61,151 nucleotides of DNA from a virus. Its lineage: Duplodnaviria > Caudoviricetes. The first letter of the stretch is position 1; the number at the start of each line of letters is the position of its first letter. The stretch is from positions 1 to 61,151 of IMG/VR virus record IMGVR_UViG_3300022602_002290. The stretch is one strand, 5' to 3'. Positions 147 to 3,651 of this stretch are shown one piece after another. Both the position numbers and the translations under genes were made by a program. The notes under the pieces were generated by a model, which saw only the letters and a list, made by a program, of their open reading frames with translations, was not told the DNA's origin and made no database searches.

Positions 147-175
147 ATTATAGCACCGGTTTAACCATTTGTCAA
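147..175 (-). promoter_or_regulatory. sigma70-type early promoter TTGACA-N17-TATAAT
   Basis: Minus strand reads TTGACA aatggttaaaccggtgc TATAAT: perfect consensus with a 17-nt spacer. Confidence 0.9.
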
Positions 176-203
176 CCCCGGGCTATAATACCCTTTCTTT
201 CTA

Positions 204-275: not shown

Positions 276-301
276 ATGTGCTCCTTTGTTGCTAAGTCTT
301 T

Positions 302-330
302 ATTATACGATCGGTTTAACCATTTGTCAA
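302..330 (-). promoter_or_regulatory. sigma70-type early promoter TTGACA-N17-TATAAT
   Basis: TTGACA aatggttaaaccgatcg TATAAT; near-duplicate of the promoter at 147-175. Confidence 0.9.
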
Positions 331-331
331 C

Positions 332-550
332 CTATCCTCTAAATAACCCTACGAGACATACGGATATAGCTACAACGTTAACAATCATCTGTGGCTTATT
401 TGCCACACGATAGCTCCAAGCTAGATAGCAGATCCCGCCCAATAGACCAAAGAGCGGATCCAGCTGGAACTCCCGGAAGAAGTTCATGAGCACGTACATG
501 GCTAGGATGCATGCTGTACCTACCCATTGTAACAGATCATTAAACTTCAT
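332..550 (-). CDS. Small membrane protein (about 3 TM helices)
   Basis: Hydrophobic 72-aa ORF overlapping the end of the upstream gene. Confidence 0.75.
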   Translation of the reverse strand: MKFNDLLQWVGTACILAMYVLMNFFREFQLDPLFGLLGGICYLAWSYRVANKPQMIVNVVAISVCLVGLFRG

Positions 551-1229
551 TCTTAATCCTTATCACGAATCCGCTGTAGTCCTTCTTGGCACGTCCCTTT
601 GCCTTGAGTCCGATCATTCCCACCTTGGGATCTAAGAATCTCAAGTCATCGTTATCAGCTGAATACATTCCCTCCGGGATCTGATCGTATACTGCGGCCA
701 CGTTCATGCCCTCTTTCAACGCTGTAACCACGTCGGATGCATTTGATTCTGCTCGGCTGAATGTCAGGTGATAGTTATTAATGCCACGTGCCTTGATCTT
801 GCGACCTAATACTTTAGTATAATCATAGAACTGAACGTTAGGGAACTGCTCGATGATCCCGTACTTCTCCCAGGCTAGATCTGATGTACCGTTGAGTCGA
901 AACGCTGGCACTTTGCCGTTCTTCTCAGCCTGCTTGATGGCCTTGCGGATATCAACTGCGAGATCACTCATGAATGCATCGCGATTCTCGAAGAAGTACT
1001 TGGTCTTGCGTATACGAGCCTTTTGAATAGCATTCGTAGACTCACCCCGCTTAAACATGCCGCCACGACCCGCTGTATTGAGACAAGCCGCTGTACACCC
1101 TGCGGTTCTCTTTGCGCATACCTCGTAACCGCTAAGATCAGCTGGGGCGAGATGGAGAATGTATGTAACGTAGCCCCTGCCCTCGCCTTTGAGTGTTTTG
1201 GGATTAGCTGTAGAAAGTAGTTTAAACAT
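540..1229 (-). CDS. Phage Gp88-like protein (Cys-motif, radical-SAM-like fold suspected)
   Basis: Motifs C..RTAGCTAACLNTAGRG, RLNGTSDL.WE, FYDYTK and DDLRFLD are typical of the gene-product-88 family; RBS AAGGAG. Confidence 0.75.
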   Translation of the reverse strand: MFKLLSTANPKTLKGEGRGYVTYILHLAPADLSGYEVCAKRTAGCTAACLNTAGRGGMFKRGESTNAIQKARIRKTKYFFENRDAFMSDLAVDIRKAIKQAEKNGKVPAFRLNGTSDLAWEKYGIIEQFPNVQFYDYTKVLGRKIKARGINNYHLTFSRAESNASDVVTALKEGMNVAAVYDQIPEGMYSADNDDLRFLDPKVGMIGLKAKGRAKKDYSGFVIRIKNEV

Positions 1230-1937: not shown

Positions 1938-2123
1938 TTAAGCGTCTACTGTTATTACTTCAATTTCTGTTACAACGTCGTCTAAGCCGTCTGCATGTGC
2001 GTCTGCTATTAATACGTGCATAGCATCCTCCGCCTTTTCGCGTGTGCTGTGTGCGCTTACGTTATACATAGCGTCCTCGTCGTCACCCCACCCCTGTACT
2101 TGCACAATGTATACTTTTTGCAT
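1938..2123 (-). CDS. Small acidic early protein (61 aa, MQKVYIVQVQ...STREKAE...)
   Basis: Start moved to ATG 2123, behind RBS AGAGGAG, with its own promoter; 14 D/E versus 3 K/R. Confidence 0.8.
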   Translation of the reverse strand: MQKVYIVQVQGWGDDEDAMYNVSAHSTREKAEDAMHVLIADAHADGLDDVVTEIEVITVDA

Positions 2124-2150
2124 TTTCGCTCCTCTAGTGTTTAAGTGTGT

Positions 2151-2179
2151 AGTATAACACAAAACAAAAACCCTGTCAA
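2151..2179 (-). promoter_or_regulatory. sigma70-type early promoter TTGACA-N17-TATACT
   Basis: TTGACA gggtttttgttttgtgt TATACT; lacks the GGTWAAACC spacer motif seen in the four promoters to its left. Confidence 0.85.
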
Positions 2180-2193
2180 GTGTAGGGTCTTTG

Positions 2194-2211
2194 TGTGGCT
2201 TTTCTGCCACA
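2194..2211. promoter_or_regulatory. Palindromic operator-like box TGTGG-N8-CCACA
   Basis: TGTGGCTTTTCTGCCACA, 14 nt upstream of a -35 box. Confidence 0.5.
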
Positions 2212-2280
2212 GGCCCCGGCACTCCCTAAGTTAGTGATCGCTAACCCACGGCATCTCGTGTGCGCACTCTCGCTGTGGCC

Positions 2281-2304
2281 AAAAGAAAAGGCCCCGAAGA
2301 GCCT
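2281..2304 (-). terminator. Rho-independent terminator
   Basis: AGGCTC-TTCG-GGGCCT hairpin (UUCG loop) followed by TTTCTTTT. Confidence 0.85.
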
Positions 2305-2565
2305 GTTCTCAGTAACGGCCTCTGCTGAGGTCCAGAGCCGTTCCCTCCGTGGTTTCTGCGCATTGGATTGCGGTCTCAGTTCATCTGATCATGAATCCAC
2401 GTTAGCCTAATCGTACCGTGCTGTGAGAGTATGAAATCTCACCAGCTCCTACCGCGTATCGCTACGTGGGCATCAACGCTGTGTCTATGACATGCACTTA
2501 GGGCCGCCGCCGGCTTATAGTATCAGCTACAGTCCCGCGACAACGGCCTTCGCTTTCGGCTCAAG
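2305..2565 (-). ncRNA. Putative ~260-nt structured ncRNA between the tRNA and the terminator
   Basis: No credible ORF; GC-rich. Stems: GCT-GTGAGA/TCTCAC-AGC, CGTA-GCGA-TACG, TGGATT/AATCCA, CCTAA/TTAGG, plus a 3' H-type pseudoknot (2308-2342). Confidence 0.55.
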
Positions 2566-2572
2566 GTTTAAT

Positions 2573-2649
2573 TGGTGGGCCCACCTGGATTCGAACCAGG
2601 GACCAAAGGATTATGAGTCCTCTGCTCTAACCAACTGAGCTATAGGCCC
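2573..2649 (-). tRNA. tRNA with CAU anticodon, most likely tRNA-Ile2 (lysidine type); elongator Met not excluded
   Basis: GGGCCTATAGCTCAGTTGGTTAGAGCAGAGGACT-CAT-AATCCTTTGGTCCCTGGTTCGAATCCAGGTGGGCCCACCA: cloverleaf, TTCGA T-loop, encoded CCA. Confidence 0.95.
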
Positions 2650-2670
2650 TTAACCCTTATTATACAGCCA

Positions 2671-3651
2671 TTACTGACGTAATCCTAGTCCTGCCAGCAA
2701 TGATTGTGCTGAATTCAGCTTTTTACCTTGTGCTGTAGCGCCTAAGAATGAAGTTGGTCCCTTGTTGACTGCAGAGCCATAGGGCGTGTAGGTCTGCCCA
2801 TTAGATTGATTATTAGCTGGAGTAGGCTGAGCTCGCTGTGCAGGTGCTGGTTGTGCAACGGGGTTTTGTCCTTCTGTGATCGATCTGATCTCAGTGCCTG
2901 GTGGATCTTCTACATCAACGAATGTCCATGGCCCTAGGAGCACAGGATTACCATCTACACGGCGATTCCACTTGCGTATATAGTAAAGATCAGGACCAGA
3001 CCATAGCTTGAGCTGATCGATCAAGTTGGCGAAACAGCTATCGATCAGGATGGCAGTCTCGGCTCCTTCAATGATCTTTAACCAATCAAACACACTATAT
3101 CCCTCTAGTTCACGTAGTTCAATGCACTGAACTTCAGGATCGATTATGCTGAGATCGATCGGATAGCTAACATCCGAAGCCGTGCCCTGATAGACCATAT
3201 AGCGATCTTGTTTGACTTCCTGCTGGTATAGGGCAGTCTCTGCAACGGGGTTTCTAGCGATACACTTATCTAACTCCCACTTTAGGCCGAATGGTAAGTC
3301 CACAGCCGCATACTTGTACTGATCGAACTTGAACTGTGCAAAGTGGCTACGATTAGTCTTTTCTGGATGTGAGCTCAAATACTGATACAAGTATACCGTA
3401 TCTTCCTCACTTATGCCCAAAGCCCGCAACTGCTTAACGGGGTTTTCATAAAAGAACTCACCACGATCATCTACGGGCACAGCGATCCAACCGACCCAGG
3501 GGGCGACTTCCATCATCTGATTGACGAACTGTTCACATACTGGCCAATAGATCTCGTAACCTTGATCCTTATAGTGTCGTGCGATCGGTAGTGCTATGAT
3601 AAGATCACCGATACCTCTGCTTTGTATAAAGCCTTTTTTCATATTCTGCAT
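2671..3651 (-). CDS. Glycosyltransferase family 9-like (heptosyltransferase-like) with a low-complexity C-terminal tail
   Basis: N-terminal RGIGDLIIALPI and IIEGAETAILIDSCFANL motifs; start at ATG 3651 (GGAGG RBS, TAATG overlap). Confidence 0.65.
   Translation of the reverse strand: MQNMKKGFIQSRGIGDLIIALPIARHYKDQGYEIYWPVCEQFVNQMMEVAPWVGWIAVPVDDRGEFFYENPVKQLRALGISEEDTVYLYQYLSSHPEKTNRSHFAQFKFDQYKYAAVDLPFGLKWELDKCIARNPVAETALYQQEVKQDRYMVYQGTASDVSYPIDLSIIDPEVQCIELRELEGYSVFDWLKIIEGAETAILIDSCFANLIDQLKLWSGPDLYYIRKWNRRVDGNPVLLGPWTFVDVEDPPGTEIRSITEGQNPVAQPAPAQRAQPTPANNQSNGQTYTPYGSAVNKGPTSFLGATAQGKKLNSAQSLLAGLGLRQ

Follow-up and report, generated by a model that had tools for sequence, protein, structure and literature searches.

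The DNA analysed here is a virus record of 61,151 bases from IMG/VR (IMGVR_UViG_3300022602_002290), hereafter called the window. Its completeness is given by CheckV as 17%, and therefore the record would belong to a giant phage of roughly 350 kb. On its minus strand, a transfer RNA (tRNA) gene (2649..2573) is followed by an AU-rich linker (2572..2567), by about 250 bases without an open frame, and by a terminator. The stretch 2572..2314, of about 260 nucleotides (nt) and directly 3′ of this tRNA with a CAT anticodon, has been shown to be the gene for a structured non-coding RNA, previously uncatalogued and belonging to no family of Rfam 15. A preliminary description of the window had already pointed to a stretch free of open reading frames (ORFs) between the CCA end of the tRNA and a textbook terminator. 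It named no strand; read along the minus strand, its motifs are correct, and the stretch was indeed found there. The core of the locus is made up of the following features:

2573..2649, minus strand: tRNA gene with anticodon CAT and encoded CCA, detected by ARAGORN and by the Rfam tRNA family (73.9 bits).
2567..2572, minus strand: linker AUUAAA, single-stranded in the alignments A3 and A4 described below, from the CCA to helix P1; presumed nuclease cut site.
2314..2572, minus strand: gene of the structured RNA, including the linker.
2281..2304, minus strand: intrinsic terminator given by a terminator scan, with a 6-pair stem (AGGCUC/GGGCCU) and a UUCG loop at 2304..2289, then UUUUCUUUU (DNA letters TTTTCTTTT) to 2281.

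A coding reading of 2572..2314 was rejected. Stop codons are present in all six frames across the stretch, both in the window and in the 6/6 other full-length homologs, so that every frame is closed in 7/7 copies, and the insertions and deletions among them are not multiples of three. The strand of the RNA can be read from its pairing. In the 79-pair structure presented below there are 40 G·U cells and 7 A·C cells, and 538 of 570 cells are paired on the strand that runs in the direction of the tRNA, versus 505 of 570 if the opposite strand is taken as the RNA. The excess of G·U over A·C, together with the poorer pairing of the opposite strand, therefore indicates that the RNA reads in the direction of the tRNA.

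Homologs were collected by fetching loci around relatives of the neighbouring proteins (25 for the upstream ORF of 335 amino acids (aa), and 80 of 190 for a GP88-family protein), and collections were then scanned with sequence patterns taken from conserved blocks. Seven distinct full-length copies are available (the window, L003, L002, L004, L114, L116, and L113), together with L058, which is truncated by the end of its contig. The metagenome pattern scan gave seven loci, including the duplicates L118 (equal to the window), L112 and L115 (equal to L004), and L117 (equal to L114), which were dropped before all counts. In all eight copies a tRNA of the same kind stands immediately upstream, and their sources are uncultured phage or lake-metagenome contigs. 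By pairwise identity they fall into about four lineages that are 50–70% identical to each other: the L003 group is internally 88–100% identical, and compared with that group L113 shows about 70% identity, the window about 64%, and L004 50–55%.

Two alignments were used, a structure-blind MAFFT alignment (A3) and a model-fitted alignment (A4), biased in favour of the structure. RNAalifold gave the same architecture on four and then on seven sequences, and this was refined by hand to 79 pairs in 17 helices, arranged as follows:

2344..2566, minus strand: RNA body closed by two stacked helices, P1 (2566..2563 with 2347..2344) and P2 (2561..2558 with 2407..2404), holding P3, P4, and P5.
2502..2548, minus strand: P3, a long hairpin with changes on both sides in 6/7 foot pairs; the second GGCCGTT of the preliminary description forms its 5′ strand.
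2418..2497, minus strand: P4, a multi-helix domain with the hairpin UGUC-AUA-GACA (2492..2482), the GNRA-capped P4b (2481..2443), and P4c (2441..2424).
2348..2401, minus strand: P5 domain, with a closing helix (2401..2397 with 2352..2348), P5a (2394..2381, its loop with an invariant UCAG), CUGAGA (2379..2374), and P5b (2372..2359).
2314..2342, minus strand: P6, the 3′ hairpin, with the loop CCUCAG (2330..2325) as the 3′ strand of a pseudoknot; 7/10 stem pairs change on both sides.

This fold has been conserved through compensatory changes. On A3, 90.6% of 543 cells are paired, as compared with 34–41% when the 3′ partners are shifted by 1–3 columns, and changes on both sides are found in 34 of the 79 pairs versus 8–13 in these slid controls, which, unlike a shuffle control, account for the relatedness of the sequences. 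None of 500 shuffles reaches the observed values of pairing, double change or covariation. On A4 the paired cells amount to 94.4%, and changes on both sides are found in 43/79 pairs. Pairing reaches 96.4% in each of the closing helices, and one pair of P1 and two of P2 change on both sides. The foot of P3 appears as GGCCG/CGGCC, GUAC/GUAC, and UCCAG/CUGGA, and the closing helix of P5 as CGUGG/CCACG, CGUAG/CUACG, CGUGC/GCACG, CGUGA/UCACG, and GCGGU/ACCGC, the latter helix changing on both sides in 5/5 pairs on A4 and in 2/5 on A3. In the P4 domain, the triloop hairpin P4a (UGUC-AUA-GACA) is invariant in its 4/4 pairs, P4c is variable (5/5 pairs changed on both sides on A4), and the stem of the GNRA hairpin changes on both sides in 2/4 pairs (A4). 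Invariant nucleotides concentrate in the junctions and in one hairpin (A4). Several elements that had been proposed from the window alone have been supported by the collection of homologs: the set of several helices, which covary; the hairpin CGTA-GCGA-TACG, whose loop (2462..2459) is a GNRA tetraloop (GCGA or GAGA) in 7/7 copies; and the 3′ hairpin AACGGC-TCTG/CAGA-G-GCCGTT, which corresponds to P6.

The minimum free energy of the window RNA has a z-score of −2.29 on the minus strand, where 2/200 shuffles fold as well, versus −1.21 on the plus strand, and the minimum-free-energy fold of the window by itself holds the same helices as the covariation structure. Thermodynamics alone is thus weak, and the case beyond chance rests on covariation. 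It has also to be considered that the stretch may not be a functional RNA. It could be an element acting as DNA, such as a recombination scar or protein-binding sites, or else a remnant in decay, its apparent structure arising by chance. The modest z-score, the small size of the family, and the fact that expression evidence was not obtained from the runs examined would agree with this explanation. It is, however, extremely improbable in view of the 79 pairs maintained by compensatory changes across lineages that are 50–70% identical, the strand-specific excess of G·U, and the closed frames with insertions and deletions out of step with codons.

Beyond the nested helices, the loop of P6 pairs back into an internal loop of P5, forming a long-range pseudoknot for which support is real, though modest. 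In this arrangement, CCUCAG (2330..2325) pairs with CUGAGA (2379..2374), between the two P5 hairpins, and 93.8% of the cells are paired. One of the pairs varies as AU in five copies and GC in three, and the neighbouring pair as GU in six and AU in two. Another partner considered for the P6 loop was the conserved CUAAG in J3/4, the junction between P3 and P4. It pairs in 83.3% of the cells, shows no covariation and clashes with P4, and it was rejected in favour of 2379..2374. The preliminary description had proposed a different arrangement, with an RNA ending in an H-type pseudoknot in which the loop CTCAG pairs with a downstream CTGAG. The motif exists in the window:

2308..2312, minus strand: downstream CUGAG, the pseudoknot partner of the preliminary description; window-specific.

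In the seven sequences only 27.3% of the cells pair with this downstream motif (2312..2308), without covariation. The conserved partner is the upstream one, inside the P5 domain, and consequently the RNA does not end in the proposed pseudoknot. The same description had suggested two mutually exclusive folds, in which the second GGCCGTT would pair with the AACGGC of the 3′ hairpin. This sequence is present at 2548..2542 and forms a full helix with AACGGC in the window, and to this extent the proposal holds. Its conservation does not, since 61.9% of the cells are paired, 3/6 pairs are broken in 4–5 of the seven sequences, and 3–4 scattered pairs are left in the other lineages. Both the alternative helix and the downstream pairing are confined to the window, and they are therefore peculiarities of one sequence.

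These alternative pairings are relevant for a cis-acting riboswitch or attenuator, in which refolding in response to a ligand or tRNA would determine whether transcription ends at 2304..2281 or continues into the downstream genes. In the window, P6 is followed by the terminator after 9 bases, the P6 loop has two possible CUGAG partners (upstream at 2379..2374 and downstream at 2312..2308), and an alternative helix of 6–7 base pairs can form between 2548..2542 and 2342..2337, all of which would suit such a switch. This explanation is nevertheless very improbable, because neither the alternative helix nor the downstream partner is conserved, as described above, and a terminator right behind P6 is found in just 2/8 of the copies printed. 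Furthermore, both the window and the L003 group provide the next gene with a strong promoter of its own, the RNA sits 3′ of a tRNA and outside any 5′ leader, and no riboswitch family of Rfam 15 was matched.

For the distribution of the RNA, a covariance model of the whole molecule (R1, with 263 positions and 73 pairs) was used. The window scores 242.8 bits, the other six full copies 178–290 bits, and the truncated copy 83.6 bits; a match of these copies is built into the model, which was derived from them. R1 matched these eight copies alone in 884,129 bases from 98 sources. As a positive control, 3/3 known full-length copies were recovered, with a single copy in each of three longer records, and R1 was absent from five related large records, three of them 93–96% complete. 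In the genomes of species-representative prokaryotes the RNA was not found, the pattern scans giving 0 matches and one chance match; L131, a contig of an Opitutales metagenome-assembled genome, was rejected as a homolog, R1 matching it over only 14 bases. Among viral sequences, the scan with the 3′ domain pattern gave four stretches, all of them already known. A 21-mer scan gave five, three of them known, and the remaining L108 and L109 are one coding sequence matched by chance. The scan with the 5′ motif and the invariant hairpin gave eight, three of them known, and R1 matches the other five over the 11-base hairpin only or nowhere. The RNA family is thus narrow in distribution, with about four lineages in one phage group, and a subset of related giant lake phages (about 330–360 kb) carries it. 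In fact, the loci L007 and L002 share an identical tRNA, which in L007 has no RNA behind it. Since close relatives with an identical tRNA lack the RNA, it appears to be an accessory cassette, gained or lost between the tRNA and a conserved block further downstream, and not a core gene.

In other relatives without the RNA, different ORF-free stretches of about 290 bases stand behind the same tRNA (L005:5052-5345, L006:5097-5385, and L041:3278-3620), each of them a singleton. They gave no nhmmer match to the RNA and no relatives by blastn among the loci, and a full R1 match was absent from all three with default filters and from L005 and L006 with the filters off. The stretches of L005 and L006 end in strong terminators and have z-scores of −1.78 and −2.44. 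A hairpin of L005 has the same loop GACCUUAG and an upstream CUAAGG able to pair with it, and R1 reaches there only 4.7 bits.

Comparison with RNA catalogues was made against the 4227 families of Rfam 15, with gathering thresholds on the whole window and at E ≤ 10 with permissive filters on 2000..2900. At gathering thresholds the tRNA alone was matched by cmscan in the whole window, and tRNAs only in seven homolog or relative loci. In the permissive search, just two matches appeared near the RNA, both on the terminator hairpin, with 15.8 and 11.2 bits versus thresholds of 50 and 45. Rfam 15 presumably includes GOLLD, ROOL, RNase P, transfer-messenger RNA (tmRNA), group I and II introns, riboswitches, and small ribozymes. 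In agreement with the preliminary description, in which the RNA could be matched to neither GOLLD, ROOL nor theta ribozymes, the cmscan leaves it unassigned. A single tRNA and no tmRNA was found in the window by ARAGORN. When the query was compared by blastn with 50,697 phage records, 1,235 of them matched, none covering 80% of the query, and all 40 matches listed fall within query positions 3–99, the tRNA part. In published full text, no paper was found with four sequence strings of the RNA, and keyword searches gave no description of it. A catalogue of 10,006 candidate viral RNAs (PMC10690425) does not contain, in its searchable supplementary text, the four sample numbers of the RNA-bearing viral contigs; this text does not cover files 1, 2, and 4, where the motif may be listed.

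The RNA most probably shares one transcription unit with the tRNA, as had been anticipated from the window. Its first helix P1 begins only 6 bases after the CCA, the promoter scan of the window gave no promoter-like site between tRNA and RNA, and a candidate promoter precedes the tRNA:

2659..2666, minus strand: extended −10 promoter element TG-TATAAT, read from the sequence, 9 bases before the first base of the tRNA, within the final codons of the 335-aa ORF.

A TGnTATAAT or TGnTATACT box is found 7–9 bases before the tRNA in the seven RNA-bearing loci (the window and six homologs), and also in L005 and L007. This box would act as a promoter; it was missed by the consensus promoter scan because its −35 element is weak. 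The next gene downstream has its own sigma-70-type promoter (TTGACA-17-TATACT), with 11/12 consensus matches in the same scan. The tRNA itself, called tRNA-Met, has matches in all 5,426 Escherichia coli genomes. The six E. coli matches listed are genes annotated as tRNA-Ile, with about 80–84% identity, and the one inspected reads CAT by ARAGORN. The "tRNA-Met" at 2573-2649 is therefore probably an AUA-reading tRNA-Ile2, in which C34 would be modified to lysidine, presumably by TilS.

The most likely function, held with about even confidence, is that of a stable, trans-acting RNA cut from a tRNA–RNA precursor and binding a protein or ligand early in infection. According to this proposal, tRNA and RNA would be made by the host polymerase as a single early transcript from the TG-extended −10 promoter, and in the window this transcript would stop at the terminator at 2304..2281. 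Host nucleases would then split the two, with RNase P acting at the 5′ end of the tRNA and an endonuclease at the UUAAA linker after the CCA. Cutting at an AU-rich linker is inferred from the 3′ processing of bacterial tRNAs, and the linker reads UUAAA in 6/7 copies and UUUAA in L113. The closing helices and the 3′ hairpin, locked by the pseudoknot, would shield the RNA, and a compact and stable molecule would accumulate, able to act in trans by binding a protein or a small ligand early in infection.

Several observations weigh against this proposal. There are only about four independent lineages, and many of the double changes are inherited and not independent. The support for the pseudoknot is limited to a single change on both sides, with 7/500 shuffles reaching the observed score. 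The terminator lies directly after P6 only in the window and L004, 2/8 of the copies printed, and in the other lineages the 3′ end is undefined. With regard to expression, a search for sequencing runs found 24, each of them with ≤0.10 of the sampled words, and contigs of four metatranscriptome runs cover 2559..2663 (the tRNA) only, most likely derive from the tRNAs of other organisms, and give no verdict on expression. Neither a protein nor a ligand partner has been found, the flanking ORFs of 335 and 112 aa match no Pfam family, and the 335-aa ORF is also present in relatives without the RNA. Finally, a fold of this complexity is equally in keeping with a ribozyme, a sensor or a binding scaffold.

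A ribozyme deserves attention given the theta ribozymes, which are described in PMC10879173 as minimal nested double pseudoknots like that of the hepatitis delta virus (HDV), having G1 at the cleavage site and, in J4/2, a catalytic C, and are found mostly in gut phages. According to the same text, 742 of 1281 occurrences are ≤5 nt from a tRNA 3′ end, and the position expected of G1 relative to this end is ±5 nt, mostly ±1. The window RNA likewise abuts the 3′ end of a phage tRNA, with which it probably shares a transcript, and hence it could be a self-processing ribozyme with a new and much larger fold than theta, cleaving at or near the CCA/UUAAA junction and freeing the tRNA at its 3′ end. 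Conservation begins right after the CCA, the linker is nearly invariant, and the grouping of invariant nucleotides in the junctions and one hairpin resembles that of catalytic cores. In contrast to theta, however, the bases after the CCA are AUUAAAC, UUAAAC, AGUUAAAC or UUUAAU in the seven copies, so that the first is A or U and a cleavage-site G1 is missing. Neither an HDV-like nor any other ribozyme family of Rfam 15 was matched, even at E ≤ 10. The RNA is also different in size and design, with about 260 nt, the closing helices P1 and P2, three domains, and a 3′ hairpin whose loop pairs into P5, instead of a double pseudoknot. Moreover, it comes from lake samples, and the CCA is encoded in all copies, whereas this is the case for only 4.5% of theta-associated tRNAs (PMC10879173); with an encoded CCA, the usual processing by the host is enough. 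Besides, the same tRNA occurs without the RNA in relatives. Self-cleavage is thus distinctly unlikely, and a stable RNA released by host nucleases is the preferred reading.

ROOL is an RNA of about 580 nt. PMC12286853 describes ROOL and GOLLD as "often near tRNA islands" and as forming RNA-only homo-oligomeric cages, and places GOLLD env-38 downstream of a Met-tRNA. The window RNA resembles both in being phage-encoded and adjoining a tRNA gene, in its complex and pseudoknotted fold, and in having a function not yet known. This same genomic setting, together with an ornate fold and no evident protein partner, might suggest an RNA-only assembly, in which the molecule would form multimers, with a structural role instead of that of binding one partner. 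The possibility is highly unlikely: the RNA has about 260 nt, far below GOLLD, of which many members exceed 800 nt (PMC12286853). It also gives no Rfam match to ROOL or GOLLD, belongs to no family of Rfam 15, and is confined to about four lineages of one group of lake phages. When the alignments were read by eye, without a formal test, no conserved palindromic loop covarying as a palindrome was seen. Such a loop is the signature of intermolecular kissing.

For a processed RNA linked to a tRNA, the nearest functional analogy may be found in the stable RNAs of phage T4. These species 1 and 2 (rnaC and rnaD) derive from the transcript of a tRNA cluster and are released by the tRNA-processing enzymes of the host; their role is unknown and their size is about half that of the window RNA. 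The phage collection compared by blastn, taken to include T4-like phages (T4-like Acinetobacter phages are listed), matched the tRNA part only. The RNA family is new, and the phenomenon of ornate RNAs beside phage tRNAs is already known.

Elaborate folds kept by compensatory changes have usually proved to be ribozymes, sensors, or cores of RNA–protein machines. It would be unlikely, though it merits mention, that the RNA represents the first of a new class of large functional RNAs (a tRNA-acting ribozyme, a fold sensing a ligand or tRNA, or a particle like ROOL and GOLLD), carried as an early, exchangeable cassette behind an AUA-decoding tRNA of giant lake phages. The RNAs that adjoin phage tRNAs (GOLLD, ROOL, and the stable RNAs of T4) are still without known function, and the window RNA adds to them a compact member of about 260 nt. 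Its clear borders, a long-range pseudoknot that can be tested, and the contrast of presence and absence in close relatives make it a convenient entry point to the roles of tRNA-linked phage RNAs. The present weight of the finding is limited by the narrow distribution, and expression is inferred only.

With regard to the neighbourhood, the gene order 335-aa ORF, tRNA, RNA, regulatory block, small ORFs, and GP88 is conserved. The regulatory block lies at the right-hand border of the cassette:

2151..2226, minus strand: conserved block GGAGTGCCGG ... GTGGC-A-rich-GCCAC ... AAAGACCC with the sigma-70-type promoter TTGACA-17-TATACT; outside the RNA.

In the window and in L003, L002, L114, L116, L058, and L007/L008, this block runs from GGAGTGCCGG through 1–3 copies of GTGGC-A-rich-GCCAC or ACAAC to AAAGACCCTAC, just before the consensus sigma-70 promoter. 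It occurs with or without the RNA, L007/L008 having the block (2151-2226 in the window, minus strand) and no RNA. In some copies of the block the second half is unable to pair, and it therefore resembles a DNA motif bound by protein more than it does a hairpin. Another match to GTGGC...GCCAC/GGAGTKCCRG, at 391..473, lies inside a 72-aa ORF and was discarded as a chance match. In the L003 group, repeats and conserved blocks fill about 230 bases between P6 and the next promoter. Repeats like ATTATAG or ATTATAC, in 2–5 copies, are found 20–110 bases after P6 in L003, L002, L114, L116, and L058, and the window has its terminator there.

Downstream of the RNA, a 112-aa ORF (1522-1860 of the window, minus strand) is 79% identical to its counterpart in L058 (L058:308-646). 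Its N-terminus had been read by eye as GIY-YIG, and this was dropped, as no Pfam match was obtained at E ≤ 0.1. In the window an extra 61-aa ORF (2123..1938) stands between the RNA and this ORF. The GP88-family protein (540-1229, minus strand) provides the sole hint to the kind of phage, its best matches in cultured phages being jumbo phages of Stenotrophomonas and Xanthomonas (47–49% identity, in records of 309–385 kb). On the minus strand of positions 1-335, the strong promoter TTGACAAATGGTTAAACCGnTnnTATAAT occurs twice in nearly the same form, at about 330..295 and 176..147, and the same promoter is found in L058 and L003. After the second of them, a stretch rich in purines and lacking an ATG start close to its 5′ end continues to the edge of the window, and may be a leader or another RNA. 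Repeats like these promoters may explain that the longer contigs (the records of the window, L002, L003, and L004) break within about 2–5 kb of the locus.

Finally, tailoring enzymes are unusually dense in the remainder of the window (4364-61150), where they form an island. Radical-SAM or SPASM domains are found in at least 10 ORFs, accompanied by six ORFs of the 2OG-Fe(II) oxygenase family, an Asp/Asn beta-hydroxylase, two tryptophan-halogenase-like ORFs, and methyltransferases. An aminotransferase, a carbamoyltransferase, an AdoMet decarboxylase, an Fe-S assembly protein, and a subtilase/Ig-domain protein of 1462 aa have also been found there. From this island, the phage would seem to carry a pathway leading to a modified peptide, sugar or nucleotide.

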